From positions 79,341-143,340 of the forward strand of contig CAKPCH010000001.1 in assembly GCA_934141535.1 (NCBI GenBank): a stretch of DNA of 64,000 nucleotides, read 5' to 3'. This stretch comes from an uncultured Bacilli bacterium (lineage in GTDB: Bacteria > Bacillota_I > Bacilli_A > RF39 > UBA660). This document shows, piece by piece, positions 6,960-60,971 of the stretch. Under the pieces are notes generated by a model that did no database searches, was not told where the DNA came from, and worked only from the letters and a program-made list of their open reading frames with translations. Made by a program: the position numbers and the translations under genes. Each line of letters begins with the position of its first letter. The first letter of the stretch is position 1.

Positions 6960-7713
6960 AACAAAATGTTCTTTTAAATGGTTCTATAATAAATATTAAA
7001 GATGAAAATATAAAATTTTATGAAAATTGTTTAGAAAATGTTAATATTAATGGAATTGATACTAAAATTTTTAAAGGTTATCTTAATTATAAACCATTTT
7101 ATTGTCCTAATTGTGGCGTTATTAATGAATCTAGTGATGATATTATTAAATGGGATTGGAAACTTAATTGTAAAGTTATTTTACCTAAAATTTTTAATTA
7201 TAATACTATCCTTATGTTAGATAAATAAAGATTTTATTGTAAACATTGCCACTGTACTTTTATTGCTGAATCTAATGAAATTAATAAGTACTGTAATATT
7301 TCTAATAATACTAAACTTTCTATTAATCTTGATTTAATGAATAAGATTAGTGAAAAAGATATTGCTTTTAGAAACAAAGATATTGATTTATTTATTAAAA
7401 TTATTTCTTCTAAACATAATAATATTTCAGATTATATGAAAACTACTCTTAAAACTTATAATGAATTTAAACCATTTATTATTAATTCGCTTAAATTTGA
7501 ATATAACAACGGACTTATTGAAGGAACAAATAACTTAATTAAATATATTAAAAGAATTGCTTCGATTTTAAATCTTTTTATCATTTCAAAATTAGAATTT
7601 TACTTATTATTGGTATTTATAAATATGCATAATAAAAAGGAAGTCCGAAGACCTCCTATCAATCTCATTTATCATTAGTTTTTGGTTCCGCCAACACTAT
7701 TTGACAAAGAGCC
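6960..7713 (+). mobile_element. ISL3-family insertion sequence remnant. The transposase is truncated and internally deleted, the right inverted repeat is present, and the left end is missing.
   Basis: Frame-2 translation gives an ISL3 transposase N-terminal zinc finger (KPFYCPNCG ... FYCKHCHC). This is followed almost directly by the ISL3 C-terminal signature FEYNNGLIEGTNNLIKYIKR. An in-frame TAA lies at 7226-7228. The terminal inverted repeat ggctctttgtcaaatagtgttggc is the reverse complement of 7690-7713. Confidence 0.65.
6962..7678 (+). pseudogene. ISL3-family transposase pseudogene: no start codon, an in-frame stop at 7226, and the DDE catalytic domain deleted
   Basis: Only ~235 codons remain of a family normally ~430 aa. 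The zinc-finger N-terminus and the extreme C-terminus are joined with the DDE core absent. Confidence 0.6.
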
Positions 7714-8002
7714 TGTTATCTACCCACTAAAATGTCTTAATGGTTAATTTTTACTCCCCACTGAATTATCTAGAGCCAATTTTATTTGCTCAAAGTGACT
7801 TCCCTCTTTCAAAAAAATCTAGTCACTAGTATTTTTTGTTTACAACAAAACATTCCACTGGAATATTTTGTTACTTGTTATTCTCACTTTATTTGTCTTT
7901 ATATTTTTATTATTTTTTCTATTATTTTAAATCCTATATCGTTTATTATATTATTTCTTCTATTGTTATTTATTCTTAATTTTTATTCTTTCTTTATAAC
8001 TC

Positions 8003-10717
8003 CTATTTTATCAAAGATGATGAGATTGTTATAACTGGACGGACACCAGGATCGCTCGCATAGCTGACGGCGCCGCAGCTCAAGCCGCCGCTACAGTGAA
8101 CAAACCACGCGTAGCTAGAGTCATCAGCATCAGGTGTTATTGTCCAATAACCATATACTCCTGATACTGGATGTGCTGTATCTATCAAATAATCATATAG
8201 CCATGTTGATAAACCTGAAATATATGAATTATTAAATGTTTTTCCAGAGGCAGTGGCTATTTGACTAGCACTTGGAAAACTCACTTCTACTCCTTCTTTA
8301 TTAAATATTTCCTTTATATGGCCTAAATAATCTTTTCCTGTTGGAGCATTTGAACCTGTTGCTGTTATATTTTTACATGTTGTGTTATCTGTTCCTCCAT
8401 CTGTACACCAAGCTAATCTATATGGTACATATGAATCTGTAAAATTTTCTTTCATGATTAAACTTACATTATCTTCTGAATTTCCAAGTACAAAGAATGT
8501 ATTACTATAACTATCTCCTACATCGCATGTATATTCATCTCCGTAATTAAAACTTCCACTTGGTACATTACCTGTTGTTGCTTCTGTTACTGGATTACAT
8601 ATTGGAGGTGCTACTAATGATGATTTAGGCACTTCTATTACTGGACGAACTCCATAGCTAGTACTACTAACATTACTTTTATTAAATTGGCCCAGAAAAT
8701 ATACATACCATGCATAATTTGTATTTGTACCAGCAGATGAAGAAGCTGTCCAATAGCCATACGTTCCATCAATATCGCCGTTATTTAAACAACCATAAGA
8801 TGTACAAGTTTTCATTGTTCTATCATATAGCCAACCATAACTACATCCTGTTGTATTACCATATTTACATGTATCACTTTGTCTCGTAAAATTTGTATCA
8901 AAAAAGTAATAATTAATAGTATTAGTAGCTTCATTAAAAGTTGAATAACCTGTAATTTTAGCTATTTCATTTGCCGTTATAAGTCTTGCATTAAAATTAG
9001 AATAATCTACTGTATAATTTGCTTGAGATGCTTGTGATGACTGATCAACAGTATAATTTGAAGGAGTATTAGTCCCCTTCCAACCGCTTGTATCTGTTTT
9101 AAGTTGCGTTAGTAACGTACTAGGTCCTGATCCAATACTTCCAGTTGAATTCCAAGCAATTTTTGCTGTTGTATTGTGATCCAATATTAAATTAATATTA
9201 TCTCCACCATCATCGTTAAATGCATAAAACTTCATACATCCTGATTTTACTCCTGTAGCGCTCTGTGATGCAGTATAATTCGTACAAACTTTTCCAGTAT
9301 CTACATTGAAATATACTACTTCTCCATTTGTGTAGTGTTTTGGTGCCTCTTTGATTATAATATCACCATTAACTCTCGGTACAGTCAATAGTTTAGTAGT
9401 CTCATCATATAGGTAATCCGTTCCTCTTGTTAATGCCACATCTCCCATAATAACTCTAGGAACAGATAAATTTATAGTTGCTGTATATTTATTACCTTCT
9501 ACCACTTCATTGATACAATCTGTACATGTCACTCCATCATATGTTACTTTAAATATTTGCTTATAGTTAAATTCTATATTAAAACTTTGTGGATCACTAG
9601 TTACTAAACTTTCGTCTATTCCATCTTTATATTTTATTGTTATATATATTTTTTTAGTTACACCATTTGTACAGTTATCATCATCACATACTGGCATTAC
9701 CTCACCATTATTATAGCCATCTATTGTATAATCTAAAACACTGTCAGATTTGAATGAAGATTTAGGAATTGTTATTACTGGACGGATTCCATTTTCAAGG
9801 CTTACAAAGTTAGCAGTCAAGGAACCATTCGAACCCATAATTCGTGCACCATAAGTGGCATTTTCAACAGGGGTAGATGTCCAATAACCAGTTACATCTG
9901 ATACTGGATGAATTGTTCCATCTAAATAATCATATAGCCATGTTGGTAACATCTCTTCTTCGTTCCCTCCCGCAGCATATAACTGATCATATGTTGGCAA
10001 CGTTATTTGTGTCTGAGATAAATTTGTCCAAGTTAATGTATAAGCTCTTAAAGCTTTATTTGCTGTTATTGGTCCTTTAGTATTATTACCATTGTCATAA
10101 TTTGTTCCTCCTGCTGCTATATAGTCTTCTTGTGTTACCCATGCAACTTTTGATTTGTCTGTTGATGATGCTGTAACTATATTACCATCACTTCCTACAT
10201 TTGCATTTAAAATTAAGCTTACATTATCACCAGAGTTTTCTACTACAAAGAATGTTTTAGGTGTACCATCTCCTACATCACATATGTATTCATCTCCTGG
10301 ATTATAATTACCATCAGGTAAATATCCTAATGTAGGATTTGTTACTGGAGTACATATTGGAGATTGTGTAAGTGCTCCCATTTTTACATTACCCAAGTTT
10401 GTTATATCTACTTCATATTTTACAGTTGAATTCTTATTTGGTAATACTATATCTCCAAATATATTAGATACGTTATATTCTTCAGTTCTTGCTATAGCGT
10501 TATTATCTGTAGAACTTACTCTAATACCAGTTAATCTTACTGTCTTATCTATTCTTATCATAGCTATATTTTTCATAACTAAACTTGCGCTAAATGAAGC
10601 AAATCCTATGGTTAAAGTTGTTACTAAAATAAAAATAGTAATAATTAACCCTTGGGTTAATTTCTTACTATTAATATTTTTGAAATTGTTAAAACCATAA
10701 TTGTCTTTTCTTTTCAT
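8003..10717 (-). CDS. large (904 aa) secreted/surface protein with a SipW-cognate-type signal peptide, an N-terminal TasA-like beta-module, Ig-like middle modules and three DUF1566/Fib_succ_major-like lectin-type modules each ending in G(V/I)RPVI
   Basis: N-terminus ...LTQGLIITIFILVTTLTIGFASFSASLVMKN has a charged n-region, an h-region and the AAF-like FASF motif. Repeated module ends are NGIRPVITIPKSSF, YGVRPVIEVPKSSL and PGVRPVITISSSLIK. The modules contain YWTSTP...AWYV hallmarks of the DUF1566 family. It is the last gene of the tasA-sipW-DUF5305 operon. Confidence 0.8.
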   Translation of the reverse strand: MKRKDNYGFNNFKNINSKKLTQGLIITIFILVTTLTIGFASFSASLVMKNIAMIRIDKTVRLTGIRVSSTDNNAIARTEEYNVSNIFGDIVLPNKNSTVKYEVDITNLGNVKMGALTQSPICTPVTNPTLGYLPDGNYNPGDEYICDVGDGTPKTFFVVENSGDNVSLILNANVGSDGNIVTASSTDKSKVAWVTQEDYIAAGGTNYDNGNNTKGPITANKALRAYTLTWTNLSQTQITLPTYDQLYAAGGNEEEMLPTWLYDYLDGTIHPVSDVTGYWTSTPVENATYGARIMGSNGSLTANFVSLENGIRPVITIPKSSFKSDSVLDYTIDGYNNGEVMPVCDDDNCTNGVTKKIYITIKYKDGIDESLVTSDPQSFNIEFNYKQIFKVTYDGVTCTDCINEVVEGNKYTATINLSVPRVIMGDVALTRGTDYLYDETTKLLTVPRVNGDIIIKEAPKHYTNGEVVYFNVDTGKVCTNYTASQSATGVKSGCMKFYAFNDDGGDNINLILDHNTTAKIAWNSTGSIGSGPSTLLTQLKTDTSGWKGTNTPSNYTVDQSSQASQANYTVDYSNFNARLITANEIAKITGYSTFNEATNTINYYFFDTNFTRQSDTCKYGNTTGCSYGWLYDRTMKTCTSYGCLNNGDIDGTYGYWTASSSAGTNTNYAWYVYFLGQFNKSNVSSTSYGVRPVIEVPKSSLVAPPICNPVTEATTGNVPSGSFNYGDEYTCDVGDSYSNTFFVLGNSEDNVSLIMKENFTDSYVPYRLAWCTDGGTDNTTCKNITATGSNAPTGKDYLGHIKEIFNKEGVEVSFPSASQIATASGKTFNNSYISGLSTWLYDYLIDTAHPVSGVYGYWTITPDADDSSYAWFVHCSGGLSCGAVSYASDPGVRPVITISSSLIK

Positions 10718-10727
10718 ATTTTATCAC

Positions 10728-11855
10728 CTATAAATCAACGCTTTTTACATAATATATATATAATACTTTACCATCCTTTACATAAAAGCAACATTTTTCA
10801 CTATTTATTTTAACATACATAATTGGTATTTTTAAATTATCTCTAACATCAAGTAATTCTTGAAATTTAGTAATCTTATATACGTCATGCTCTTTTAAAT
10901 CAGGTATACGATTAGTTTCAACTATTGTTCTATCATAATCATTTAATAATTTATTAACATAACTATTGTATTTATCTTTTTTTGGAAGTAATACTACTAA
11001 TAGTTTTATTAAATATATGAAACTTGCTAATCCTAATAATATTAATATTATGCCAGCTACAAAGAATGGTTTATTACCTATCATAGCACTTACAGTCTTT
11101 GTAGCACTACCATTTTTATTTGTATTTGATGCATCTATATTTATATTAATTTGTCTTGTTGAAAGTGGTATTGTTAAAGTAGATGAACTTGAATTGTTAT
11201 AATCTATACCAAATGCACTTTCTTTACCTAATGTATTTGTAATTAATTTAATAATTAATTTACTATCACAACTTACACCATATGTACTTTTAAATGTATT
11301 TGCTAAGTCATTATATTTATTATAATCAATTGCTATTGTTTTATCTAATGAATATCCACTAGCACTGTTTTCTAACCCTTTAACATTATCTTCTAATACA
11401 TAATCTTTTGTATATAGTATTTTACCTGAATTCCCTTCCGGAGTAATAACAAGGCTTGCTACTATTTTATAATCATGATTAATTGTAGATGTTCTATTTA
11501 CCATAAAATTATATTTAAATGTTACATTAATATAGTCAATTAAACTTGCTATATAAGTCATATTCTCATCCAAATATGGTGCTTCATAGAAGTCATTTGG
11601 TTTTAAATAAACTTTGTAACCTGTACTACTACTTTCTTGATAATTTACATAAACGTTCTTATTTCTATCTATTGATAAATTAATAAACATTACTGAGGTA
11701 ATTATCATGACTATAGTGAGAATTAAAGAGAAAGTAATTCTTGCGTTAAAGCTAATATATCTTTCTTTTTTCTTCTTTACAATTTTTTCAGTTACTTTCA
11801 CTTCTTCGTTATTAGTTTTCTCACTTTCTTTAATTATGTTTCCCTTTTTTTCCAT
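10728..11855 (-). CDS. DUF5305-like accessory membrane protein: an N-terminal TM anchor, a ~230-aa extracytoplasmic domain and a C-proximal TM
   Basis: 375 aa. TM helices at ~38-58 and ~268-290 (FFVAGIILILLGLASFIYLIKLLVVLL). Its position immediately downstream of sipW matches the sipW/tasA-associated DUF5305 genes of Clostridia. The family name is assigned from memory, not from a search. Confidence 0.55.
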   Translation of the reverse strand: MEKKGNIIKESEKTNNEEVKVTEKIVKKKKERYISFNARITFSLILTIVMIITSVMFINLSIDRNKNVYVNYQESSSTGYKVYLKPNDFYEAPYLDENMTYIASLIDYINVTFKYNFMVNRTSTINHDYKIVASLVITPEGNSGKILYTKDYVLEDNVKGLENSASGYSLDKTIAIDYNKYNDLANTFKSTYGVSCDSKLIIKLITNTLGKESAFGIDYNNSSSSTLTIPLSTRQININIDASNTNKNGSATKTVSAMIGNKPFFVAGIILILLGLASFIYLIKLLVVLLPKKDKYNSYVNKLLNDYDRTIVETNRIPDLKEHDVYKITKFQELLDVRDNLKIPIMYVKINSEKCCFYVKDGKVLYIYYVKSVDL

Positions 11856-11870
11856 CTTAATCTCTCCTTT

Positions 11871-13001
11871 TTACAATTCGCTTAGCATTACTGTTGGATA
11901 TCCTATAAAAGGTATTTGAACATTAACTATTCCCTTTATCATATCTTCAGTTATCTTATATCCATCTTGACTTGCATTAGCATCACCTTTAGTATAGAAA
12001 TAATGTTCACCATCTATATCAAGCACCTTAACAACTCTATGAACTATTACTTTATTTTCATACTCATAAGCAACTATGTCCCCTACTTTAATTTTATCGT
12101 AGTCTTTATCAATTTTCTTAATAATAACAACTGCTCCTCTATCAAATGTAGGACTCATTGATCCACTAGCAATCGCTACTGCTGTATATTTGAAATAACC
12201 ACTTGTAAAATAAGTAAGTACAACTACAAGTCCGAATAACAACGCATAAGAAATTATATTTATTTTATTATTACTTCTTGTCATTACCTCTTCGTTTAAT
12301 ACATCTTTAAATTCTCTTAATAATATTGTAAATAATATTATAGGAACTAACAAGTCAAATATTGACTTCATATATTCACTAAAGTTTGGAACTATAGGAA
12401 GTAAATAACTATATACACCAAGTACTAATCCAAGTAATAATGATGGCTTATAACCAGCATTTAAGCATATATACGTCTTACATAAATTACGTGCTATACT
12501 TGGAAGTAAATATAACCCAACAAACACTAATATGTTATATACTGAATCAAAATCAGCATAATATATAGTATTTGTTACATCAACAGTAATCAAAAGTATA
12601 GTCGTAAAAATTATTAATAATATATTTCCTTCGCTTTTCTGTAACAATTGATATCTTAAAAACTCACTTAATATTATAACTAATACTGTAGGAAGTATAA
12701 ACGTTGTAAATGATTTAAAAGTATAATAATTGTTATTATAAGCAAATCCTGAAAAGAAACCTATTATGTAATATATAACTAATACTATAATCAAATATAT
12801 TAATATTGATTTCATTACATTTGAACTGTTTTGGTGTTTATCTTTTTCAAAATTAAAATTAATTTTAAAAATGATAAGCGCTAAAACCATAAATAAAACA
12901 ATATAATAATTGCTTAGTATATTTTTAAAGAAACTGTTAAAAAGTAAAACTAAAAACAATGTTAATTCAATTATTAATATTTTCAAATAACTTTTTTTCA
13001 T
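11871..13001 (-). CDS. sipW: ER/archaeal-type signal peptidase I (SipW family, S26B) fused in-frame to an N-terminal ~240-aa polytopic (about 6-TM) membrane domain
   Basis: C-terminal 137 aa: MTRSNNKINIISYALLFGLVVVLTYF (TM), then SGSMSPT (catalytic Ser box), VGDIVAY, VHRV (catalytic His), TKGDAN and QIPFIGY. This is collinear with B. subtilis SipW. There is no stop codon between the membrane domain and the peptidase domain across 376 codons, in a genome where stops are frequent. Confidence 0.8.
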   Translation of the reverse strand: MKKSYLKILIIELTLFLVLLFNSFFKNILSNYYIVLFMVLALIIFKINFNFEKDKHQNSSNVMKSILIYLIIVLVIYYIIGFFSGFAYNNNYYTFKSFTTFILPTVLVIILSEFLRYQLLQKSEGNILLIIFTTILLITVDVTNTIYYADFDSVYNILVFVGLYLLPSIARNLCKTYICLNAGYKPSLLLGLVLGVYSYLLPIVPNFSEYMKSIFDLLVPIILFTILLREFKDVLNEEVMTRSNNKINIISYALLFGLVVVLTYFTSGYFKYTAVAIASGSMSPTFDRGAVVIIKKIDKDYDKIKVGDIVAYEYENKVIVHRVVKVLDIDGEHYFYTKGDANASQDGYKITEDMIKGIVNVQIPFIGYPTVMLSEL

Positions 13002-13028
13002 GTTTCACCTCTTAAACAATATTTAGAC

Positions 13029-13059
13029 TAGAGATAATAGACGAATTCTATTATCTCTA
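13029..13059. promoter_or_regulatory. intercistronic perfect 12-bp stem-loop between the TasA-like gene and sipW; candidate attenuator or mRNA-stability element
   Basis: tagagataatag (13029-13040) / ctattatctcta (13048-13059) with a 7-nt loop. No clean T-run follows on the coding (minus) strand. Confidence 0.4.
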
Positions 13060-13082
13060 ACCTAATTTTAGAAATTAATTTA

Positions 13083-13742
13083 TTAGTTAGCTGGAGTATC
13101 TGAAGTATATTTTAATTCAACACTACCAAAGTCAACTTTAACGTCACCATCAACGTCAACAGCATCACTTGCATAACTAATAGTAATAACTGCTTGACCA
13201 GCACCGTCAGTTTTAACTAATTTTTGTGCTTCAGCTTGAACTTTATTTAATTCAGTTGTAGCAGTAAATGTTTGTAATGATTCAGCAGCAGGTCCAACTT
13301 TTACAGTCATAGTAATTTTATCACAAGCAGCAGCCATTAAATCACTAGATACAGATGTCTTACCTTCAGTTACAACAGCAGTACATTTAGTTGTTGCTGG
13401 TGTAAATGTTACAGTTCTTAAATAAGCATCATAAGCACCTTGATTTAAAACTGGAATAGTCATAGTAACTGAATCACCTGGTTTAGATAATTGAGCTGTA
13501 ATAGCTGCTATAGTATTTGTTCCTTCAGCACCACTAGATAGTGTTACAGAACCTTTATCAGATGGACTTACTGATCCTGCTCCAAATAAAACTTTAAAGT
13601 TTTCTGAAGTTGGAGTTACAGTTGCCTCTGATTTAATAGTTAATGTACTAGAGAAAGCTGCAAAACCGATACTTAAACCTAATACTGAGATAACTAATGC
13701 TACTAAAGCTACTGTTTTACTATTTTGTTCTTGCATAAACAT
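13083..13742 (-). CDS. TasA/camelysin-family (peptidase M73-like) secreted fibre subunit with a SipW-cognate signal peptide
   Basis: N-terminus KTVALVALVISVLGLSIGFAAFSSTLTIKS matches the SipW-cognate class with an AAF motif. The core LSKPGDSVTMTIPVLNQGAYDAYL resembles the TasA segment LKPGDKLTKDFQFENNGSLAIKEVL. 219 aa. It is the first gene of the operon with sipW. Confidence 0.8.
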   Translation of the reverse strand: MFMQEQNSKTVALVALVISVLGLSIGFAAFSSTLTIKSEATVTPTSENFKVLFGAGSVSPSDKGSVTLSSGAEGTNTIAAITAQLSKPGDSVTMTIPVLNQGAYDAYLRTVTFTPATTKCTAVVTEGKTSVSSDLMAAACDKITMTVKVGPAAESLQTFTATTELNKVQAEAQKLVKTDGAGQAVITISYASDAVDVDGDVKVDFGSVELKYTSDTPAN

Positions 13743-13833
13743 TCCTTCCTTTCTAACATAATTTGTACATACGATGGAAACCCTTCTTATGTTACATTAA
13801 AATTATATATCAGATAGAAATAAATTTCAATGT

Positions 13834-13924: not shown

Positions 13925-14893
13925 ATGAAAAGAAAGATGAAAAAAAGACCTATATTTATTTTAATTTTTATAATTATATTTATAATTGTTGTAATAAGTT
14001 TTATAGTAAGAACTATTAATTATCATAAAACTTATGACTATAAGCTTGGAAAACAAGGTTTTAATAAAGAAGAAATAGTAGAACTAAAAAAACTAAAAGA
14101 TGATACATTAAACTATTTACTTACTATTACTTATAATAAAGATATAGTAAATATAATTAAAGAAAAATATTTCTTAGAAAAAAACTTAAGTAAATATATA
14201 ACTTATTTAGAAAAAAATAAAGATAAAGATATATCTGATATAATTTCTATTGTTAATGTGGGCGCAGATAATGATTTTTATACCAATACAAAGAAAACTG
14301 ATACTAATAAAGGTATACTTATGTTAACAAATAAGTATTATGGTTTAGATGAAACATATGATGATACAACTATGAAAGAAATAAGTTCTACTTATAGTTA
14401 TGGAAGTGATCAAATGTTAGTACCAGAAGCACTTAATGCATTTATTAATATGTTTAAAGCTGCAAAAAAAGAAAATCTAACATTAATTATAAACTCCTCA
14501 TATAGAAGTTATAAAGATCAAGATGAAGTTTATAATAAATATAAAGATACTAAAGGAGAAGAATATGCAGATTCAATAGCAGCCCGTCCTGGTTATTCAG
14601 AACATCAAACAGGACTTGCCATTGATATTCAAACATATGGTTCAAGAGCCGCTACATTTGAAGAATTCGATGAATTTAAATGGTTACAAAATAATGCTCA
14701 TAAATATGGTTTTATATTAAGATATCCTAAAGATAAAGAATATTTAACAGGTTACTCATATGAGTCATGGCATTATAGATATGTTGGAATTAGTGCTGCT
14801 ACATATATTAAAGAAAATAATATAACATTTGATGAATATTATGCATATTTTATAGAAGGTAAAGAAAATGAAAAAGAAACGACTAAAAATTAA
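13925..14893 (+). CDS. membrane-anchored D-alanyl-D-alanine carboxypeptidase, VanY/peptidase M15B family (paralog 1 of 3)
   Basis: N-terminal TM (PIFILIFIIIFIIVVISFIV). C-terminal M15B motifs ARPGYSEHQTGLAIDI and SWHYRYVG. RBS aatggtgataatATG. Confidence 0.8.
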   Translation: MKRKMKKRPIFILIFIIIFIIVVISFIVRTINYHKTYDYKLGKQGFNKEEIVELKKLKDDTLNYLLTITYNKDIVNIIKEKYFLEKNLSKYITYLEKNKDKDISDIISIVNVGADNDFYTNTKKTDTNKGILMLTNKYYGLDETYDDTTMKEISSTYSYGSDQMLVPEALNAFINMFKAAKKENLTLIINSSYRSYKDQDEVYNKYKDTKGEEYADSIAARPGYSEHQTGLAIDIQTYGSRAATFEEFDEFKWLQNNAHKYGFILRYPKDKEYLTGYSYESWHYRYVGISAATYIKENNITFDEYYAYFIEGKENEKETTKN

Positions 14894-16028
14894 AAAATTA
14901 ATATTATTTATACTTATAGTTTTAATAATACTTATATTATTAGTTTTATTTAATCATAAAAATAATAAAGATTTAAAATCTATTGGTTATAATGAACTAG
15001 AAATAAGTTCAATAGAAAAACTAACTAAATCAGAAATAAATGAAATAAGAAAATATAAATATAATAAAAATATAATATATATAATAGAAAGTGAAAACTA
15101 TAATCCAAATAAAATAAAATATTATTTAAAAGGAATTAATGAAAATAAAAAAATAGATTACTTAAAAATATTTAATTTAATAAATGATGATGAATTTAAA
15201 GAAAATAATTTTGATATATATTTAAATTTATTAAATAAATATGATAATTATAAAGGTATTTTAAAATATGTAAATGATTATTCTAGTAATAATATAAAGC
15301 TTGATAACACAACACTTTCATTTATAGAACAAGAATATTTTATTATAGATTACTTAGATAGATATATAAATTATTATAATGATAATAAAAATTTAGATTT
15401 TAAAGAAATAGTAACACGTGTTAATTCTAATCTAGATTATAAATTTTATGATGATTCTAAAGAAGCTGATTTATCTAAAGGAATGTATACTTTAGTAAAT
15501 AAATTCTATTATTTAGGCAAAGATTATGTACCAGATGATTTAGAAGTAATAGATGGTATATATGCAAGAGATAGTGCTAAAGCTGTTAAAGTTGCAGCTA
15601 CTACATTTAAAAAAATGGCTGATGATGCAAGGAATGAAGGCTTAACTATAAAAGTTACAACAGGATATAGAAGTTATAATTTTCAATCCACTTTATATAA
15701 TAACTATGTTAAAATAGATGGTGTAAAAGAAGCTGATACCTACTCTGCTCGACCTGGTTATTCAGAACATCAATTAGGATATTCACTAGATTTAACAAAT
15801 GCTAAAAACGTAGGATTTAGAGATTTTGATAAAACAAAAGAATATGAATGGTTAAGTAAAAATGCATATAAATATGGATTTATACAAAGATATCCTAAAG
15901 ACAAAGAATATTTAACAGGATATATGTATGAATCATGGCATTATAGATATGTTGGTGATGATATAGCAAAATATATCTATGAAAATAACTTAACATACGA
16001 AGAATATTATGCCTACTTTAAAAGATAG
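14868..16028 (+). CDS. membrane-anchored VanY/peptidase M15B family D,D-carboxypeptidase (paralog 2) with a long N/K-rich N-terminal extension
   Basis: SARPGYSEHQLGYSLDL and ESWHYRYVG motifs, and an N-terminal TM. The start overlaps the previous gene by 26 nt. Confidence 0.8.
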   Translation: MKKKRLKIKKLILFILIVLIILILLVLFNHKNNKDLKSIGYNELEISSIEKLTKSEINEIRKYKYNKNIIYIIESENYNPNKIKYYLKGINENKKIDYLKIFNLINDDEFKENNFDIYLNLLNKYDNYKGILKYVNDYSSNNIKLDNTTLSFIEQEYFIIDYLDRYINYYNDNKNLDFKEIVTRVNSNLDYKFYDDSKEADLSKGMYTLVNKFYYLGKDYVPDDLEVIDGIYARDSAKAVKVAATTFKKMADDARNEGLTIKVTTGYRSYNFQSTLYNNYVKIDGVKEADTYSARPGYSEHQLGYSLDLTNAKNVGFRDFDKTKEYEWLSKNAYKYGFIQRYPKDKEYLTGYMYESWHYRYVGDDIAKYIYENNLTYEEYYAYFKR

Positions 16029-16068
16029 TAAATGCTATCTTTTTTTCATATAATATAATGGTGATAAT

Positions 16069-44206: not shown

Positions 44207-45478
44207 TTACTTTATAACTGATTTAGATAATGTTATTACTGGACGGATACCAAATTTATTTGAAAGTCCAACGTTATAATAATCTATATTGCTATTATTA
44301 CCAACATACCATGCACCAATAGTAACTGTATGTGGAGTACTAGTCCAATATCCATCTACACCTGTTACTGAATGTAAAGCTCCAGATAAATAATCAGTTA
44401 ACCATTTTTGTTCTAAAGTTGGATAGTCTAAATAATTCTTTCCATCAGCGGTTGCTATTTGACTAGCACTTGGAAAACTCACTTCTACTCCTTCTTTATT
44501 AAATATTTCTTTTATATGCCCTAAATAATCTTTTCCTGTTGGAGCACTACTTCCTGTTGTACTTATATTTTTACAAGTTGTGTTATCATCTTCACCATCT
44601 GTACACCAGGAAAGTGTTGTTGGTATATATGAATCTGTATAGTTTTCTTTCATGATTAAACTTACTGTATCTGTATTATTTTCTAGCACAAAGAATGTAT
44701 TTGTGTAACTATCTCCTACTTGGCATGTATATTCATCTCCGTAGTTAAAACTTCCAGTAGGTACGTTTCCTGTTGTGGCAGTAGTTACTCCTGTACAGAT
44801 TGGTTCAGAAGGTAGTGTTGGCATTCCACTTAAACTTGTTGATCCATATGTTAAATAAATACTACCAAATTTTATTGTAAATGGGCCATCGGCTATTGCT
44901 GAACCACTTGTATATTCTATTGTTATTTTTACTAATTCACTATTACTTTTCTTTAATACATGATTTGTTATATTTAGAGTTGTATCAGTATAAGAAGTAC
45001 TTAATACTGTTGTTGTTACTTTTATTCCATTACATGCTGATTCTACCATTGAAGAACTAGTACCTTCTCCAGCTACACATTCTTTAAATACTGACTTACC
45101 ACTAATATTATTAAATACTACACTACTTAAATATGCATCATAACTTCCTTCATTTCTTGCATAAAATGTATACTCTACTTTTTCTCCAGGTGCAGTAAAT
45201 GAAGCACTTAAATTTTTAATTGTTGGATTACCACTATTATCTATTATTGGTGTTCCAGCTTGTGCATTCCCTGTTTTTGTTACACTTACATTAGTTGTTG
45301 AAAGTGATGTACTACTACTTGAAAATACTACTTTAAAATTTCCTGAATCTGGTGTAATTGTCGCATTACTTTTTACTGTTAGAGAACTAGAAAAAGCTGC
45401 AAAAGCTATACTTAAACCTAATACGCTTATTATAGTTATTATTAATATTAATGTTGTATTTTTTTTATTATATCCCAT
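44207..45478 (-). CDS. TasA/camelysin-like protein with a SipW-cognate signal peptide and one C-terminal DUF1566/Fib_succ_major-like module
   Basis: N-terminus TLILIITIISVLGLSIAFAAFSSSLTVKS. TasA-like core FTAPGEKVEYTFYARNEGSYDAYL. The C-terminal ~200 aa are near-identical in design to the modules of the giant paralogs (CTGVTTATTGNVPTGSFNYGDEYTC ... YWTSTP ... GIRPVITLSKSVIK). Confidence 0.75.
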   Translation of the reverse strand: MGYNKKNTTLILIITIISVLGLSIAFAAFSSSLTVKSNATITPDSGNFKVVFSSSSTSLSTTNVSVTKTGNAQAGTPIIDNSGNPTIKNLSASFTAPGEKVEYTFYARNEGSYDAYLSSVVFNNISGKSVFKECVAGEGTSSSMVESACNGIKVTTTVLSTSYTDTTLNITNHVLKKSNSELVKITIEYTSGSAIADGPFTIKFGSIYLTYGSTSLSGMPTLPSEPICTGVTTATTGNVPTGSFNYGDEYTCQVGDSYTNTFFVLENNTDTVSLIMKENYTDSYIPTTLSWCTDGEDDNTTCKNISTTGSSAPTGKDYLGHIKEIFNKEGVEVSFPSASQIATADGKNYLDYPTLEQKWLTDYLSGALHSVTGVDGYWTSTPHTVTIGAWYVGNNSNIDYYNVGLSNKFGIRPVITLSKSVIK

Positions 45479-51104: not shown

Positions 51105-52538
51105 TTAATAAATTATTTCTATTTTTGATGGAGCATTTGTAGTATTTACTGTTAATATTGTTGTATTTTGTATTTTTGATAATTTTGGTAAATCTACTAA
51201 TTCTTCTGTTCCGCTACTTCTTATAACTTTTCCAAGCTCATAATCTATATAGTCTCCATTCATTAATGGTGAATTCAAACTTACTTTATAACTGATTGGT
51301 TCTACATATGCTTCGTATGCTGTTGGGGTTGTACCTTCTTCTATTTGGAATGTAGAGAATTTTGCTATATCACTTGAAGTAAGCACTAATGTCTGACCTT
51401 TTTTTACAAAATAATCATATCCATCCTCTACAGTAAATGTTGATGATGGTTGTAATTTATCTACTGTTATATATGAAAGAAATGTAAAAGCTGTACTATC
51501 TATTTTATAAAAATATATATATTCTGGAACACTAGAACTATTCTTTAATGTCGCACTTATTACATATTGTTTACCTGGTGTTAATTTATCCGTATATACT
51601 CTTGCTTTAGATTGTGTTGATGAAAATGGATAATCTGTTGTAACTAGTTTTGATGTATTAAAGAAATCTATTTTATTTTTACCACTAAGTGTTAATGGTA
51701 TTTCGTATTTCCCTGTACTGGAATTCAAATCTCCTACTCCACTACTACTTCCATATATTCTATATCCATCTATATAACTTATACTATCATCAACTTTTAT
51801 TTCATTTGTGGTTGATGACAATACTGTTCCAGTTGGTAATGTTGGTGTTCCGCTTAAATTTGTTGAGCCATATGTTAAATATATCTTACCAAATTTTATT
51901 GTAAATGGACCATCTGCTACACTTGAGCCACTTGTATATTCTATTGTTACTTTTACTAATTCACTATTATTCTTTTTTAATACATGATTTGTTATATTTA
52001 GTGTTGTGTCTGTATATGATGTACTTAATACTGTGGTTGTTACCTTTATTCCGTTACAAGCACTTGCTACTAAAGATGATGTTGTACCAGTACCTGCTAT
52101 ACATTCTTTAAATGATGTTTTTCCTTTAATATTATCAAATACTATACTACTTAAATATGCATCGTAACTACCTACGTTTCTTGCGTAAAATGTATACTCT
52201 ATCTTTTCACCAGGTGACGTGAAAGTTGCTTTTAATCCACTTATAGATGGATTACCATCATTATTTATTGTTGGTGTTTCAGCACTCGCATTTCCAGTTT
52301 TCGTTATGCTTACACCAGTTGTTGCAAGTGATGTACTGCTACTTGAAAATACTACTTTAAACTCTCCTGAATCCGGTGTAATAGTCGCATTACTTTTTAC
52401 CGTTAAAGTACTTGAAAAAGCTGCAAATACAATAGATAGTCCAAGCACTGAAATAAGTGTTATTACAAGAGCTAAATTTATATTTCTTTTATTATAATAT
52501 CCCATAGTACTTCCTACCCTTCTTTTATATTTTACCAC
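51105..52538 (-). CDS. TasA/camelysin-like protein with a SipW-cognate signal peptide and a distinct ~260-aa C-terminal domain (no DUF1566 module)
   Basis: N-terminus NLALVITLISVLGLSIVFAAFSSTLTVKS. The TasA-like core is almost identical to the 44207-45478 paralog up to ...TIKFGKIYLTYGSTNLSG, then diverges. Confidence 0.75.
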   Translation of the reverse strand: MVKYKRRVGSTMGYYNKRNINLALVITLISVLGLSIVFAAFSSTLTVKSNATITPDSGEFKVVFSSSSTSLATTGVSITKTGNASAETPTINNDGNPSISGLKATFTSPGEKIEYTFYARNVGSYDAYLSSIVFDNIKGKTSFKECIAGTGTTSSLVASACNGIKVTTTVLSTSYTDTTLNITNHVLKKNNSELVKVTIEYTSGSSVADGPFTIKFGKIYLTYGSTNLSGTPTLPTGTVLSSTTNEIKVDDSISYIDGYRIYGSSSGVGDLNSSTGKYEIPLTLSGKNKIDFFNTSKLVTTDYPFSSTQSKARVYTDKLTPGKQYVISATLKNSSSVPEYIYFYKIDSTAFTFLSYITVDKLQPSSTFTVEDGYDYFVKKGQTLVLTSSDIAKFSTFQIEEGTTPTAYEAYVEPISYKVSLNSPLMNGDYIDYELGKVIRSSGTEELVDLPKLSKIQNTTILTVNTTNAPSKIEIIY

Positions 52539-52639: not shown

Positions 52640-54667
52640 TTAATTTAATTCTGATTTAGGAATTGTTATAACTGGACGAATGCCATCATAGTTGGCATCG
52701 ACATCTTGACTATATAATGACCCATCACCTGTCACATCATAAGCTCTCGCATAATTTCCAGTAGAATCCTCAGAATACATAGAATATGAAATGGTCCAAT
52801 AACCAAATACTTCTGATACTGGATGAGTTGCTTCCTCTAAATAATCATGTAGCCATGTTGGTAAATTTTCTAACAAATCATCATTGTCAACATCAACAGT
52901 TAAACCTAAAGCATTTGCTATCTGATCTGCTGTTGGTAATGTTATTTGAGATATATTTGTCCAAGCCGATGTATATTCTTTCAATGCATTAGTAACTGTT
53001 ATTGGTCCTTTATTAGTTCTAATATATCTATTCCAATCACTTTCTGTCCCTCCGGCAGCTATATAATCTTCCTTTGTTACCCATGAAACTGTTGATAGAT
53101 TCGTTGAAGATGATGTTACTGCTTTACCATCTATTCCTACATTTGCATTCATTATTAAACTTACATTATCTCCTGAAGTTTCTAGTACAAAAAATGTTTT
53201 TGAGTCACCATCGCCCACATCACATGTATATTCATCTCCATAAGCATAATTTCCTGTTGGAACACTACCTGTAGTTGCGGTTGTTACTGCTTTACATATA
53301 TAATTTGAACCTTCACTAATTGTGATATCCCCATTAACATTAGGTATTGTTAACAATTTAGTAGCTTCATCATATGTATAATCTATATCTTTTGTTAATA
53401 TTATATCTCCCATAACAATACTTGGAGTACTTGAATTTATAGTTGCTGTATATGTATTACCTTCTATCGATTCTGTATTACAATTAGTACAAGTTATTCC
53501 ATCGTATGTTACTTTAAATATTTGTTTGTAATCAAATCCTATATTAAAAGTTTGTGGTTCACTAGTTACTAAACTGTCACTTATTCCATCTTTATATTTT
53601 ATTGTTACATATATCTTTTTAGTTGCACCATTTGTGCAGTTGTCACCATCACATACTGGTATTGCTTCACCATTACTATAACCATCTATTGTGTAATTTA
53701 AACTAGTATCTGCTCCAAATGCTGATTTAGATATTTTTATTACTGGACGAACACCGTAACTTCTAGAATCACTGACGGAGGGGGTGCCGCCGTTCAAATA
53801 GCCGTTATAGTGAACAATCCACGCGCTGCGAGAGAAATTACCAGGCGTTATTGTCCAATAGCCACTTACGCCTGTTACTGGATGGGTTGTTTTATCTAAA
53901 TAATCATATAGCCATGTTGGAAAACTAGAACTTTTATTTCCTGCTGCTTTATATATTTGAGCTTTTGCAGGAAAACTTACTTCTACTCCAGATTTATTAA
54001 ATATACTTTTTATATGTCCTAAATAATCTTTACCATCAGGAGCATTACTTCCAGTTGCGGTTATATTTTTACAAGTTTTATGACTGGAACCACCATCTGT
54101 ACACCAAGCTGTTGTTTTAGGTACATAAGAATCTGTATAGTTTTCTTTCATAATTAAACTTACTGTATCTGTATTATTTTCTAGCACAAAGAATGTATTT
54201 GTATAACTATCTCCTACTTTGCATTTATATTCATCTCCATAATTAAAACTTCCAGTTGGTACATTGCCTGTTGTAGCTGTAGTCACTGCTGTACAGATTG
54301 AAGAGTGTGTAACTGGAGGAAGTGCTCCCATTTTTACATTACCCAAATTTGTTATATCTACTTCATATTTTACATATGAATCTTTACTTGGTAATACTAC
54401 ATCTCCAAATATATTAGATACGTTATATTCTTCAGTTCTTGATATAGCACCTCCATTTGTAGAATTTACTTTTATACCAGTTAATCTTACTGTTTTATCT
54501 ACTCTTATCATAGCTATATTTTTCATAACTAAGTTTGAACTAAATGAAGCAAATCCTATAGTTAAACTTGTTACTAATATAGCACATATTACTATTAAAT
54601 ATTTTGAGATCTTTTTTCTCTTTATAAAACTAAAATTATTAAATCCATAATTATTTTTATGCCTCAT
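52640..54667 (-). CDS. large (675 aa) SipW-cognate-signal-peptide surface protein with two DUF1566-like modules and Ig-like middle modules
   Basis: N-terminus YLIVICAILVTSLTIGFASFSSNLVMKN. The N-terminal module is shared with the other giant paralogs (VDKTVRLTGIKVNST...VKYEVDITNLGNVKMGAL). Module ends YGVRPVIKISKSAF and DGIRPVITIPKSELN. Confidence 0.8.
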   Translation of the reverse strand: MRHKNNYGFNNFSFIKRKKISKYLIVICAILVTSLTIGFASFSSNLVMKNIAMIRVDKTVRLTGIKVNSTNGGAISRTEEYNVSNIFGDVVLPSKDSYVKYEVDITNLGNVKMGALPPVTHSSICTAVTTATTGNVPTGSFNYGDEYKCKVGDSYTNTFFVLENNTDTVSLIMKENYTDSYVPKTTAWCTDGGSSHKTCKNITATGSNAPDGKDYLGHIKSIFNKSGVEVSFPAKAQIYKAAGNKSSSFPTWLYDYLDKTTHPVTGVSGYWTITPGNFSRSAWIVHYNGYLNGGTPSVSDSRSYGVRPVIKISKSAFGADTSLNYTIDGYSNGEAIPVCDGDNCTNGATKKIYVTIKYKDGISDSLVTSEPQTFNIGFDYKQIFKVTYDGITCTNCNTESIEGNTYTATINSSTPSIVMGDIILTKDIDYTYDEATKLLTIPNVNGDITISEGSNYICKAVTTATTGSVPTGNYAYGDEYTCDVGDGDSKTFFVLETSGDNVSLIMNANVGIDGKAVTSSSTNLSTVSWVTKEDYIAAGGTESDWNRYIRTNKGPITVTNALKEYTSAWTNISQITLPTADQIANALGLTVDVDNDDLLENLPTWLHDYLEEATHPVSEVFGYWTISYSMYSEDSTGNYARAYDVTGDGSLYSQDVDANYDGIRPVITIPKSELN

Positions 54668-54810: not shown

Positions 54811-54833
54811 CGTTTTTTTACATTTAGTTGTTA

Positions 54834-58108: not shown

Positions 58109-60823
58109 TTAATTTATTAAATCTTTTGAAATAGTTATTACTGGACGGACACCATACTCGCTAGAATCGTTAACGTTAGAATAATACAAAATATTAGAAT
58201 TATCACCACTCCATGCAACGTTATTAATAGCAGCATTAGGCGTTGTTGTCCAATAGCCATATACTCCTGATACTGGATGTGCTGTATCTATTAAATAATC
58301 AGATAACCATTCTGGTAAACCTCTAATATAATTTTCATCGTCAAATGACTTACTAGAAGCAGTGGCTATTTGACTAGCACTTGGAAAACTCACTTCTACT
58401 CCTTCTATATTAAATATACTTTTTATATGACCTAAATAGTCTTTTCCAGTAAGAGCATTAGATCCAGTCGCTGTTATATTTTTGCAAGTTGTATTATCTT
58501 CTCCTCCATCTATGCACCATGCCAAAGTTTTTGGGACATATGAATCTGTGAAATTTTCTTTCATGATTAAACTTACTGTATCACTAGAATTTTCTAATAC
58601 AAAGAATGTATTGCTATAGTTGTCGCCTACCCGACAAGTGTATTCATCTCCATAATTATAACTTCCACTCGGTACATTGCCTATTATTGCTTCTGTTACT
58701 GCTTTACATCCATATTCTTGAGGTGCTACTACTGACCTAGGTACTTCTATTACTGGACGTAAGCCTATACTACCACCATATATATCATAAGTAGACATTG
58801 AATAATCTGTCATTACTGTATACACTGAATTAGTATCTAATACAAACTGTGTAGCGGTCCAATAGCCTAGATCTGAAGTTCCAGATAACCATTGATAATT
58901 ACAGCCTGTTGTAATATCAGTTTCAGTTTCTTCATCATATTTGCAAGTATCACTTGGTTCAGATGTATTAGTATCAAAATAGAATACTCCTTCTTCATCT
59001 GTAGATACATCAAAAGATGTATTACCAGTAATTCTAGCTACTTCTTCTGCTGTTATTAATCTTGCTTTATATCCTGTATAATCTATTGTATAATTAGGAT
59101 GACTATAATTTGTTGGAGTTAATGTACCTTTCCAAGACGATGTGTCAGTTTTTAATTGATCTAATAAAGAGGTAGGACCATTTGTAACATCATCACTATC
59201 ATTCCAATCTATAAGTTGCGTGGTATTATGATCTAATATCAGATTGACTTTATCTCCACCATCATCATTGAAAACATAAAATTTCATACATCCTGATTTT
59301 ACTTCTGTTTCACTTTGAGATTCAGTGTAATCTGTACAAACTTTTCCAGTATCTACATTAAAATATACAATTTGGCCATTAGAAATTTTTCCAGTGTCTT
59401 CTTTGACCTCTTCTTTAATTGTAATATCGCCATTAACATTAGGGATTGTTAATAGTTTAGTGGTTTCATCATATGTATAGTCAGTATCTTTTGTTAATAA
59501 TGTATAACCCATTGTTACTCTAGGATTTGTTAAACTAATAGTTGAAGTATAAGTATTGCCTTCTACTACTTCACTTATACAATCTGTACAAGTTACTCCA
59601 TCATATGTTACTGTAAATATTTGCTTATAATCAAACCCTATATTAAAACTTTGTGGTTCACTAGTTACTAAACTTTCATCTATTCCATCTTTGTATTTAA
59701 TTGTTACATATATTTTTTTAGTTACACCATTTGTGCAGTTATCACCATCACATACTGGTATTACATCACTTTTATTATAATCATCTATTGTATAATCTAA
59801 ATTATTATTTAAGCCAAACTGTAATTTTGATAAAGTTATAACTGGGCGTACTCCAATACCAAGATCACTAGCTACAGTACTTCCATATCCTAAATGTTCT
59901 GTCGAAATAGTTCCATTTTCAACACAATATGCATAAGTTTTTGAAGCATCTAATAATTTAGAAGTCCAATAACCTAAGACCTCATCAACAACATGTTTAT
60001 TTTCAAACGCAGAATCATATGCTGTATAATCATATAGCCATATTGGTAAACCTGACATTTTATCGCCTGCTGCTGTAGATACTTGATCTCTTGTTGGCAG
60101 TGTTATTTGAGATGATGATATATTTGTCCAAGTTGATGTATATTCTCTCAATGTTTTATTTGCTGTTAATGGGCTCATATTAATATTTTCATTCCATTCA
60201 CTTTCTGTTCCTCCTGCAGCCAGATAATCTTCTTTCGTTAACCAAAATACCTTTGATTTATTTGTTGAAGATGATGTTACCATTTTTCCATCTGTTCCTA
60301 CATTTGAATTCATTATTAAACTTACTGTATCTCCTTTGTTTTCTAATACAAAGAATGTTTTTTCTTCACCATCTCCTACATCACAAATATATTCGTCACC
60401 AACTACAAATTTTCCTTCTGGTACATTACCAGTTGTTGCTGTAGTGGCTGGCATGCATATTTGATTAGAAGTAAGAGCACCCATTTTTACATTACCCAAG
60501 TTTGTTATATCAACTTCATATTTTACATATGAATCTTTACTCGGTAATACTACATCTCCAAATATATTAGATACGTTATATTCTTCAGTTCTTGATATAG
60601 AATTGCCACTTGTAGAATTTACACTAATTCCTGTTAATCTTACTGTCTTATCTACTCTTATCACAGCTATACTTTTCATAACTAGGTTAGCACTCGATGC
60701 AGCAAATCCTATAGTTAAACTTGTTACTAATATAGCACATATTACTATTAAATATTTTGAGATCTTTTTTCTTTTTATAAAACTAAAATTATTAAATCCA
60801 TAATTATTTTTTCTATGCCTCAT
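58109..60823 (-). CDS. large (904 aa) SipW-cognate-signal-peptide surface protein with three DUF1566-like modules; mosaic paralog of 8003-10717 and 52640-54667
   Basis: N-terminus YLIVICAILVTSLTIGFAASSANLVMKS. Module ends IGVRPVITLSKLQF, IGLRPVIEVPRSVV and YGVRPVITISKDLIN. The middle module YFNVDTGKVCTDYTESQSETEVKSGCMKFYVFNDDGGD is shared with the 8003-10717 paralog. Confidence 0.8.
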   Translation of the reverse strand: MRHRKNNYGFNNFSFIKRKKISKYLIVICAILVTSLTIGFAASSANLVMKSIAVIRVDKTVRLTGISVNSTSGNSISRTEEYNVSNIFGDVVLPSKDSYVKYEVDITNLGNVKMGALTSNQICMPATTATTGNVPEGKFVVGDEYICDVGDGEEKTFFVLENKGDTVSLIMNSNVGTDGKMVTSSSTNKSKVFWLTKEDYLAAGGTESEWNENINMSPLTANKTLREYTSTWTNISSSQITLPTRDQVSTAAGDKMSGLPIWLYDYTAYDSAFENKHVVDEVLGYWTSKLLDASKTYAYCVENGTISTEHLGYGSTVASDLGIGVRPVITLSKLQFGLNNNLDYTIDDYNKSDVIPVCDGDNCTNGVTKKIYVTIKYKDGIDESLVTSEPQSFNIGFDYKQIFTVTYDGVTCTDCISEVVEGNTYTSTISLTNPRVTMGYTLLTKDTDYTYDETTKLLTIPNVNGDITIKEEVKEDTGKISNGQIVYFNVDTGKVCTDYTESQSETEVKSGCMKFYVFNDDGGDKVNLILDHNTTQLIDWNDSDDVTNGPTSLLDQLKTDTSSWKGTLTPTNYSHPNYTIDYTGYKARLITAEEVARITGNTSFDVSTDEEGVFYFDTNTSEPSDTCKYDEETETDITTGCNYQWLSGTSDLGYWTATQFVLDTNSVYTVMTDYSMSTYDIYGGSIGLRPVIEVPRSVVAPQEYGCKAVTEAIIGNVPSGSYNYGDEYTCRVGDNYSNTFFVLENSSDTVSLIMKENFTDSYVPKTLAWCIDGGEDNTTCKNITATGSNALTGKDYLGHIKSIFNIEGVEVSFPSASQIATASSKSFDDENYIRGLPEWLSDYLIDTAHPVSGVYGYWTTTPNAAINNVAWSGDNSNILYYSNVNDSSEYGVRPVITISKDLIN

Positions 60824-60960: not shown

Positions 60961-60971
60961 GAAAAATAATT

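Follow-up and report, generated by a model that had tools for sequence, protein, structure and literature searches.

The TasA superfamily of donor-strand biomatrix fibres comprises TasA, AbpX, AbpA, the 0406 thread, CanA and Tafi. In Bacillus biofilms, fibres of the TasA kind form the main protein scaffold; recent work has found them across archaea, and they are barely explored in the gut microbiota. The present analysis concerns a four-gene cassette in a 64,000-nucleotide stretch of DNA (the window) from contig CAKPCH010000001.1 of an uncultured Bacilli bacterium (GenBank assembly GCA_934141535.1). At a probability of roughly 0.6, the cassette is read here as a self-contained, chaperone-free donor-strand surface fibre system of the TasA/AbpX/Tafi kind whose initiator or tip protein bears lectin-like modules. 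AbpX loci, which occur in bacteria and archaea, are reported to encode a structurally distinct signal peptidase I (SPase I) with ten membrane helices, together with minor subunits, predicted tip proteins and an accessory protein of the DUF5305 family, and an acidic residue at mature position 4 of AbpX binds calcium (bioRxiv 10.64898/2026.01.04.697558). Haloarchaeal Tafi loci combine the TafD peptidase with the DUF5305 protein TafG and a variable tip protein (PMC11821415).

The cassette extends from position 13742 to position 8003 on the minus strand in the order A-S-D-B, where A is the subunit, S the peptidase, D the DUF5305 protein and B a large protein (Table 1). The four open reading frames (ORFs) encode 219, 376, 375 and 904 residues and are separated by gaps of 81, 15 and 10 bp, so that the ORF list agrees exactly with the four co-oriented, tightly packed genes described in the first-pass annotation of this DNA. 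The first ATG of the subunit gene has a ribosome-binding site only 3 nt upstream, and gene callers place the start two codons further on; the subunit probably starts at this second ATG and has a true length of 217 residues. Proteins A and B represent two classes of presumed peptidase substrate, class A and class B, with a common and unusual N-terminus. A six-frame motif scan and the ORF list located the same N-terminal motif on four further ORFs of the window (A423, A477, B675 and B904b), which bears out the earlier count of six substrates, two in the operon and four elsewhere.

The cassette resembles the AbpX loci, as described for Pyrodictium abyssi (bioRxiv 10.64898/2026.01.04.697558; PMC12518558), in the nature of its subunit and in its gene content. 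Both have a small subunit, a presumed jelly roll in the window protein, that is ~160-190 residues long when mature, starts with an amphipathic strand and has two cysteines. Its second mature residue is aromatic, and its isoelectric point is low (4.6 here). The subunit gene is accompanied by an adjacent gene for a polytopic SPase I of ~380 residues with a 45% identical catalytic domain, and the cluster contains a DUF5305 accessory protein and predicted tip proteins, with no chaperone. Unlike the AbpX loci, the window cassette has no SLH (surface-layer homology) or LPXTG anchor genes or cyclic di-GMP regulators nearby, its predicted tip protein bears C-type-lectin-like modules, one of them inside a subunit-like domain, and its hosts are uncultured gut Bacilli. 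The mature domains of the two subunits are also barely related in sequence, and mature position 4 is not acidic in the window protein.

The tapA-sipW-tasA operon of Bacillus subtilis likewise places an ER-type peptidase gene between accessory or initiator and fibre-subunit genes, and it has in common with the window cassette a cleavage motif of the type aromatic-A↓A-F (the arrow marks the cut) and a PGD...N.G motif. Chaperone-free donor-strand assembly is a further likeness, only proposed for the window cassette. The two systems differ in that the window subunit lies outside Peptidase_M73 and TIGR04088, the window peptidase carries nine extra membrane segments and is no orthologue of SipW, the cassette includes a DUF5305 protein, and TapA is replaced by a lectin-bearing subunit paralogue of 321-1,328 residues in related loci. 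Tafi clusters (TafA, TafC and TafE pilins; PMC11821415, PMC12337348) also unite fibre subunits, a peptidase with several membrane segments and a DUF5305 partner, and TafC, their variable tip protein, has been proposed as the donor of the first strand. In contrast to the window proteins, however, the Tafi subunits use twin-arginine translocation signals, TafD has four membrane segments and an N-terminal catalytic domain, and the Tafi regulator and anchor proteins (TafB, TafF) lack a window counterpart. Sortase-assembled pili of Gram-positive bacteria offer a functional analogy in their small-subunit shaft, large modular adhesin and dedicated membrane processing enzyme, but the cassette contains no LPXTG motif, sortase, Cna-B or SpaA domain, and its assembly would be non-covalent. 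In one cassette-bearing Bacilli metagenome-assembled genome (MAG; GCA_017536505.1), a SpaA-type pilin and a sortase are encoded ~4 kb downstream of the cassette (locus L001, 18939-21125), and these bacteria may therefore make sortase pili too; the same MAG has the sporulation genes spoIID, spoIIID and cotJB.

The gene order of the cassette is conserved. A genome scan with the peptidase alignment retrieved relatives in 187 species genomes, and synteny was counted in 80 retained loci containing 84 peptidase genes. One to six class A genes lie directly upstream of 68 of the 84 peptidase genes, and a DUF5305 gene lies directly downstream of 78. A class B gene (321-1,328 residues) follows in 42 cases, and the full A-S-D-B order is found in 40. 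The recurrence of this neighbourhood across loci argues that the arrangement is not due to chance. Clustering of all ORFs from the 80 loci identified the cassette families as the only conserved ones, with any other family present in at most 14 loci, and no conserved chaperone, usher, ATPase or sortase was found among the clusters. The loci are mostly titled as uncultured gut or rumen "Bacilli bacterium" MAGs, such as Coprobacillus sp. CAG:605 and Candidatus Faecisoma merdavium, and some are labelled Erysipelotrichaceae, Mollicutes or Mycoplasma. The closest peptidase match in the genomes of other species is 54% identical, and the window species itself is present in Hadza human-gut metagenomes with 99% identity and the same gene order.

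Protein S had been annotated as the ER-type peptidase SipW. The assignment to the ER/archaeal type holds, with 94.6 bits against a cutoff of 51.85 for TIGR02228 (archaeal/ER-type SPase I), but orthology to SipW does not, with 69.2 bits against 190 for the SipW equivalog NF046067. The catalytic motifs comprise S281 in GSM.P, H321-R322 and G-D340-A-N, which define a Ser-His rather than a Ser-Lys enzyme, and residues S281, H321, R322 and D340 are invariant in a family of more than 1,200 full-length homologues. In the PDB, the family profile matches human SEC11A/C only (E 2e-13). Protein S has no C-terminal membrane segment, and its catalytic domain is preceded by an N-terminal domain of ~250 residues with nine membrane segments, which had escaped the first-pass annotation. 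The gene adjoining abpX of P. abyssi encodes a 380-residue protein with a catalytic domain at residues 271-369. Residues 266-368 of protein S are 45% identical to this enzyme (E 6e-21), and nine hydrophobic segments precede the catalytic domain in both proteins. Protein S thus has the features of an AbpX-type polytopic SPase I, namely, membrane segments before a C-terminal catalytic domain and an adjoining subunit gene.

The membrane domains of protein S and the P. abyssi enzyme exhibit no detectable sequence similarity. In protein S, this domain (residues 1-250) has no family match and contains the invariant polar residues E52, E113, R116, Y117, E209 and S213; a similar stretch, G-R-E-M-V-R, occurs at a comparable place in the P. 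abyssi enzyme. The membrane domain could function in substrate binding or as an assembly platform. A CPBP/Abi-like intramembrane protease was considered for this domain based on the invariant E113-x-x-R116 pattern, but the domain has no invariant histidine or Pfam match, and the candidate was dropped. Protein D, the presumed accessory subunit of the peptidase, is a DUF5305 protein with two membrane segments, as annotated earlier. It consists of a cytoplasmic N-terminal tail, a first membrane segment (residues 40-58), an extracytoplasmic domain of ~205 residues, a second membrane segment (residues 265-283) and a cytoplasmic C-terminal domain of ~90 residues.

The N-termini of the six substrates are built on one plan. 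Each protein starts with a single membrane helix that ends in the near-invariant sequence G-[FYW]-[AS]↓[AS]-F, as in ...GLSIGFAAFSSTLTIKS of the 219-residue subunit and ...TLTIGFASFSASLVMKN of the 904-residue protein. The class A substrates (219, 423 and 477 residues) follow the pattern ...GLSI(G/A/V)FAAFSS(T/S)LT(I/V)KS.AT(V/I)TP, and the class B substrates (904, 675 and 904 residues) follow ...SLTIGFASFS..LVMKNIAMIR.DKTVRLTGI. In 83 proteins of class A and 49 of class B, the motif reads (L)(S/T)(I/V/L)-G-(F/Y/W)-(A/S)-(A/S)-F; G-F-A↓A-F-S is kept in 92-100% of class A, and class B keeps G-[FYW]-S↓A-F. Cleavage is presumed, from this sequence pattern, to occur at G-F-A↓A-F. No part of the family is more conserved than this motif (entropy of 0.48 bits), and the first 19 mature residues, at 1.6 bits versus ~2.2 bits elsewhere, match the best core motif in conservation. 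From the presumed cut onward, one face of the strand displays F, S/N, L, I, S, A and V, and the opposite face is entirely polar. The mature N-terminus is accordingly predicted to form an amphipathic strand of ~14 residues (A-F-S-S-T-L-T-I-K-S-S-A-T-V).

The A↓A-F type motif of all six substrates lines up with W-A↓A-F-N-D in the known cleavage site of TasA, G-T-W-A↓A-F-N-D; the corresponding site of a B. cereus plasmid TasA reads G-T-Y-A↓Y-F-S-D. The class A strand can also be aligned manually and without gaps to the AbpX donor strand QWSETLSLSATI (Q-W-S-E-T-L-S-L-S-A-T-I), and hhalign sets the two strands one residue off this register. One substrate departs from the common plan. In B904b, the motif is GFAAS, not GFASF, and residues 38-46 read TIGFAASSANL, as opposed to G-[FYW]-S-A-F in all other class B proteins. 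With serine in place of the aromatic residue at mature position 2, B904b may differ in cleavage or polymerization.

Beyond the strand, the class A subunit contains a sandwich domain with the motif PG..V......N.G.Y.AYL and two conserved cysteines. Its proposed placement in the TasA/camelysin family was not borne out by profile searches. No match to the 219-residue protein was obtained in Pfam, NCBIfam, PHROG or PDB sequences; neither it nor 18 relatives matched the TasA/camelysin profiles (PF12389 Peptidase_M73 and NF046066) at E<=10, and none of 18 class A members matched TIGR04088, the profile of SipW-dependent-type signal peptides, at the same threshold. PDB sequence searches with the subunit, the subunit profile, the 904-residue protein and the DUF5305 protein returned nothing useful. 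The same libraries recognized a TasA control with 129 bits for Peptidase_M73, 514 bits for the TasA equivalog and 38 bits for TIGR04088 (cutoff of 19); the 514-bit score confirms the control sequence. AbpX, a proven relative of TasA whose sequence was taken from the preprint supplement, also fails TIGR04088 and scores below threshold on Peptidase_M73 (18.6 versus 22.5 bits).

A possible sequence link leads from class A to AbpX rather than to TasA. hhalign aligned class A with AbpX at 59% (P 9e-5) over the signal peptide, the mature N-terminal strand and the PG..N.G motif, using an AbpX profile that is shallow (5 sequences) because the homologue search gave only 5 close relatives. A class A hidden Markov model (HMM) gave no more than 3 bits with TasA proteins and ~17 bits with AbpX proteins, the latter comparable to the 14-19 bits of a TasA HMM with AbpX. 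The AlphaFold2 model of the subunit monomer, with a predicted local distance difference test (pLDDT) score of 81 and a predicted template modelling score of 0.73, has an all-beta sandwich preceded by the membrane helix and by a disordered stretch to which the conserved mature N-terminus belongs. A Foldseek search of the PDB with this model retrieved generic jelly rolls in an unspecific manner, with the TasA fibre 8aur at rank 15; among long matches, subunits of donor-strand filaments rank best. By family criteria class A is not TasA but forms a family of its own, plausibly a remote offshoot of the TasA superfamily that lies nearer to AbpX. It has many members: an exhaustive profile search identified 6,475 representatives of 50% identity clusters at E<=1e-3, 657 of them at E<=1e-30, whereas a word-indexed homologue search found 18 relatives only. 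C-terminal extensions are present in 60 of 146 class A proteins among the best representatives listed.

The class B protein of the cassette combines a subunit-like core with three lectin-like modules, L1 to L3. Its signal peptide is of the same type as that of the subunit, and its modules carry GIRPVI at residue 310 and GVRPVI at residues 689 and 891, as had been noted. The modules had been described as DUF1566/Fib_succ_major-like. Three lectin-like modules are indeed present, but Fib_succ_major gave no match, and Lcl_C (DUF1566) reached 25.9 bits against 34.9. DUF6273, which is reported to adopt a C-type-lectin-like fold (PMC10743442), passes its threshold only for the whole 904-residue protein; individual modules score 15-20 bits and match DUF6273 or Lcl_C weakly. 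The C-terminal halves of the three modules match DUF6273/Lcl_C and end in G-x-R-P, like the modules of phage tentaclins and the C-terminal domain of Legionella Lcl. Unlike those modules, they give sub-threshold matches one by one and are carried on, or embedded within, a fibre-subunit-like domain rather than a phage tail protein. An alignment of 41 class B proteins displays a conserved core, a conserved domain of ~70 residues and then variable modules. The core comprises the donor-strand region, LPN..STVTY.V..TN.GNVEMGI, two cysteines, FYITIKYK and L.FDFR.FH.ITY, and it matches the class A profile in hhalign at 97.1% (E 6.5e-11), which indicates that class B begins with a subunit paralogue. 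In the 904-residue protein, L1 is inserted inside this class-A-like core. From these sequence features and by analogy, class B is presumed to be an initiator or tip adhesin.

The modules are shuffled among the six substrate genes at 71-85% DNA identity. At the DNA level, the C-terminal module of A423 shares 78-85% identity with class B modules, and A423 is presumed to be a minor, decorated subunit. A423, B675 and B904b have a common upstream region of ~150 nt on the minus strand (45479-45640, 54668-54830 and 60824-60970; 75-85% identity) that contains ...TATAATGAAGAATATT... and ...ATAATGAATGTAAAAA.ATAGTAATATGTGGTAAACTATA.AAGAAGGGTA and may represent either a common promoter and leader or a relic of duplication. 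The upstream region of the operon is unlike it.

The gap between the subunit and peptidase genes contains a stable hairpin with a folding energy of -22.8 kcal/mol (z score of -5.5). Equivalent gaps fold with z<-2 in 54 of 65 related loci (median z of -3.9), and the conserved position of the hairpin 3' of the subunit gene fits attenuation after an abundantly expressed subunit gene. The promoter-like site 5' of the subunit gene has 11 of 12 consensus matches and is the top-scoring site of the region, in a scan of AT-rich DNA that returned 61 sites versus 48 expected. A terminator-like hairpin is located ~350 nt beyond the last cassette gene.

In the proposed mechanism, the substrates would be exported by Sec and cut after G-F-A by the peptidase-DUF5305 complex, which would free the amphipathic strand of ~14 residues. 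By donor-strand complementation, the freed strand would fill a groove left open in the beta-sandwich of the following subunit, and a fibre of the 219-residue subunit would result. The conserved amphipathic mature N-terminus, disordered in the monomer model, lends such polymerization indirect support. By analogy with the roles proposed for TapA and TafC, class B would give the first donor strand and end at the distal tip, where its three C-type-lectin-like modules may bind glycans or other cells. The class A proteins with C-terminal domains (A423 and A477) would enter the shaft as decorated minor subunits, and the hairpin after the subunit gene would let subunit mRNA exceed the mRNA of the machinery. 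A last, uncleaved subunit is a possible means of retaining the fibre on the cell.

Several observations weigh against a donor-strand fibre. Without the signal peptide, the hhalign match of class A to AbpX drops to 7% (P 0.005) and covers the PG..N.G motif only, which is also found in DUF11/CARDB-like immunoglobulin domains; against a TasA profile of 9 sequences drawn from B. cereus-group plasmids, the 164-sequence class A profile aligns at 2%. Mature position +4 is Ser, Asn or Thr in class A, and the acidic calcium-binding residue of AbpX is absent, which makes an AbpX-style calcium-bridged strand insertion unlikely here. The AlphaFold2 model of the 904-residue protein with its three window paralogues is unusable (pLDDT of 38), and the fold and tip role of class B are thus argued from sequence and analogy. 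No LPXTG motif, SLH domain or C-terminal membrane segment was found as a cell-wall anchor. The main rival reading is a dedicated maturation pathway for adhesins that do not polymerize, in which the polytopic peptidase and DUF5305 would do no more than remove an unusual signal peptide from lectin-bearing proteins, the mature proteins would be monomers, free or loosely associated with the wall, and the conserved N-terminus would serve recognition by the peptidase. The peptidase, the DUF5305 protein and the common motif fit such a pathway equally well, the mature domain is weakly linked in sequence to proven fibre subunits, and neither an anchor nor an assembly factor was found. Signal peptidases, however, read residues -3 and -1 and not the 15-19 residues downstream, whereas both classes conserve the stretch beyond the cut and keep it strictly amphipathic. 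Class A proteins are small, lack a binding module, occur in 1-6 tandem copies and are followed by an attenuator-like hairpin, as is typical of a structural subunit made in abundance. Their best long structural matches come from donor-strand filaments, and all characterized systems with such a gene set (TasA, AbpX and Tafi) are fibres. Monomeric adhesins are considered unlikely, and the donor-strand fibre is preferred.

Taken literally, the earlier annotation would make the subunit a true member of TasA/camelysin (Peptidase_M73) and the peptidase an orthologue of SipW from B. subtilis. This reading draws on the resemblance of the A↓A-F cleavage motif and the KPGD..(9)..N.G motif to those of TasA and on the Foldseek rank of 8aur. 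The profile tests have already refuted it at the family level, and its overall probability is very low: PF12389 and TIGR04088 recognized none of 18 members but readily recognized the TasA control, the 2% alignment to the TasA profile contrasts with 85% for AbpX in the same hhalign set-up, and the peptidase is below the SipW cutoff, has nine extra membrane segments and is accompanied by DUF5305 instead of TapA. A phage-derived origin, or diversification by a diversity-generating retroelement (DGR), would make the modules DGR targets or prophage tail parts in receptor-binding proteins. DUF6273 is known mostly from DGR targets and phage receptor-binding proteins, and the shuffling of modules among the six genes is in keeping with this origin. 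Self-comparison of the window, which was not screened for reverse transcriptases, revealed no copy of a lectin-like module outside the six substrate genes, paired these genes only with one another in every repeat that involved them, and thus gave no sign of a DGR template repeat. PHROG gave a single weak hit of unknown function and otherwise no family match, the genes nearby are housekeeping ones, and the cassette occupies varied chromosomal contexts; this origin is the least probable of those considered, with hardly any weight.

The remaining features of the window provide context for the cassette. The window is very AT-rich (GC of ~19-26%), with 30-34% GC in the substrate genes. GC is raised at 8001-10000, 52001-54000 and 58001-60000, for which a composition rich in Gly, Thr, Ser and Ala or a foreign origin are possible causes. 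The neighbouring genes include the housekeeping genes priA, mraY and addAB-like genes, an ISL3 transposase fragment and three vanY paralogues, and an Rfam scan of the whole window detected no RNA family. The vanY paralogues are divergent from the operon. Within the 3-kb flank that was compared, the first two of them occupy the same place in Hadza contigs of the window species, and the paralogues are not at this position in the loci of other species. The 113-residue ORF just past the operon matches the C-terminal part of the ISL3 transposase alone (PF01610 positions 179-227 of 240) and is a transposase remnant. A 433-residue ORF with an ordinary N-terminal signal peptide, a C-terminal membrane segment and no Pfam match may encode another surface protein, unrelated to the six substrates.

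Table 1. Coordinates of the cassette, its parts, the further substrates and neighbouring features in the window (aa, residues).
Feature	Position	Strand	Remarks
Class A subunit (protein A)	13083..13742	-	219 aa; signal-anchor helix, motif G26-F27-A28↓A29-F30, predicted strand AFSSTLTIKSEATVTP, then ~170-aa beta-sandwich
Protein S, polytopic signal peptidase I	11871..13001	-	Nine hydrophobic segments (aa 1-270), then S26B catalytic domain (aa 271-376)
Protein D, DUF5305	10728..11855	-	PF17231, 66.1 bits versus gathering score of 29
Class B protein (protein B)	8003..10717	-	904 aa; DUF6273, 42.9 bits versus 23.5 (whole protein)
Class B signal	10598-10717	-	
Putative donor strand and first half of class-A-like sandwich	10370-10597	-	
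Lectin-like module L1	9752-10369	-	Residues 117-322
Second half of class-A-like sandwich	9551-9751	-	
Conserved ~70-aa domain	9344-9550	-	
Lectin-like module L2	8636-9343	-	Residues 459-694
Lectin-like module L3	8006-8635	-	Residues 695-904
A423	44207..45478	-	423 aa; class A domain and one C-terminal lectin-like module ending in GIRPVI
A477	51105..52538	-	477 aa; class A domain and unrelated ~240-aa C-terminal domain, no family match
B675	52640..54667	-	675 aa; class B paralogue, two lectin-like modules
B904b	58109..60823	-	904 aa; class B paralogue, 66% identical to the 904-aa protein of the operon
Promoter-like site, 5' of subunit gene	13802..13830	-	TTGAAA-17-TATAAT; consensus match only
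Stable hairpin, subunit/peptidase gap	13023..13065	-	19-bp stem; putative attenuator or mRNA 3' stabilizer
Terminator-like hairpin and T-run	7638..7657	-	8-bp stem, 4 GC pairs, TTTTATTATG tail; pattern match only
Three tandem VanY-type D-Ala-D-Ala carboxypeptidase paralogues	13925-16701	+	322, 386 and 210 aa
Transposase remnant (ISL3)	7337-7678	+	113 aa
433-aa ORF	19930-21231	-	

The first-pass annotation had presented the locus as a TasA system elaborated in a way for which it knew no precedent. A literature search found no paper linking SipW with DUF1566, and reports on DUF6273 concern phages, prophages, DGRs, IgA-cleaving metallopeptidases of gut bacteria and a Filifactor alocis proteome. 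The gene set itself, however, is known from AbpX and Tafi loci, and a preprint of January 2026 (bioRxiv 10.64898/2026.01.04.697558) describes the combination of polytopic peptidase, DUF5305 and tip protein. What is new here is a very large, sequence-distinct subunit family in uncultured gut Bacilli, the use of C-type-lectin-like modules to build decorated subunits and tip proteins, with a module even placed inside the subunit fold, and a conserved attenuator-like hairpin. More tentatively, and with the balance leaning against it, these families may constitute a very large, unrecognized branch of donor-strand fibres that is invisible to TasA and AbpX profiles, in which polymerization would be coupled to signal-peptide removal by the peptidase and DUF5305 and the fibre would be a scaffold for exchangeable lectin-like modules at the tip and along the shaft. 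Such a branch would provide these gut and rumen Bacilli with a reshufflable repertoire of glycan-binding fibres.

The conserved trio of a subunit, a polytopic ER-type peptidase and a DUF5305 protein offers a simple bacterial setting for the roles of the extra membrane domain and of DUF5305. If the fibre reading is correct, the cassette would also supply many natural fibre subunits that tolerate domain insertion or fusion, which would be useful for the engineering of protein materials. An order-level group of uncultured low-GC gut and rumen Bacilli would then make fibres of the TasA kind from a subunit family that escapes current annotation. These fibres would be tipped or decorated with lectin-like modules shuffled among paralogues, and they would be a concrete candidate for the attachment of these bacteria to mucus, dietary glycans or other cells.

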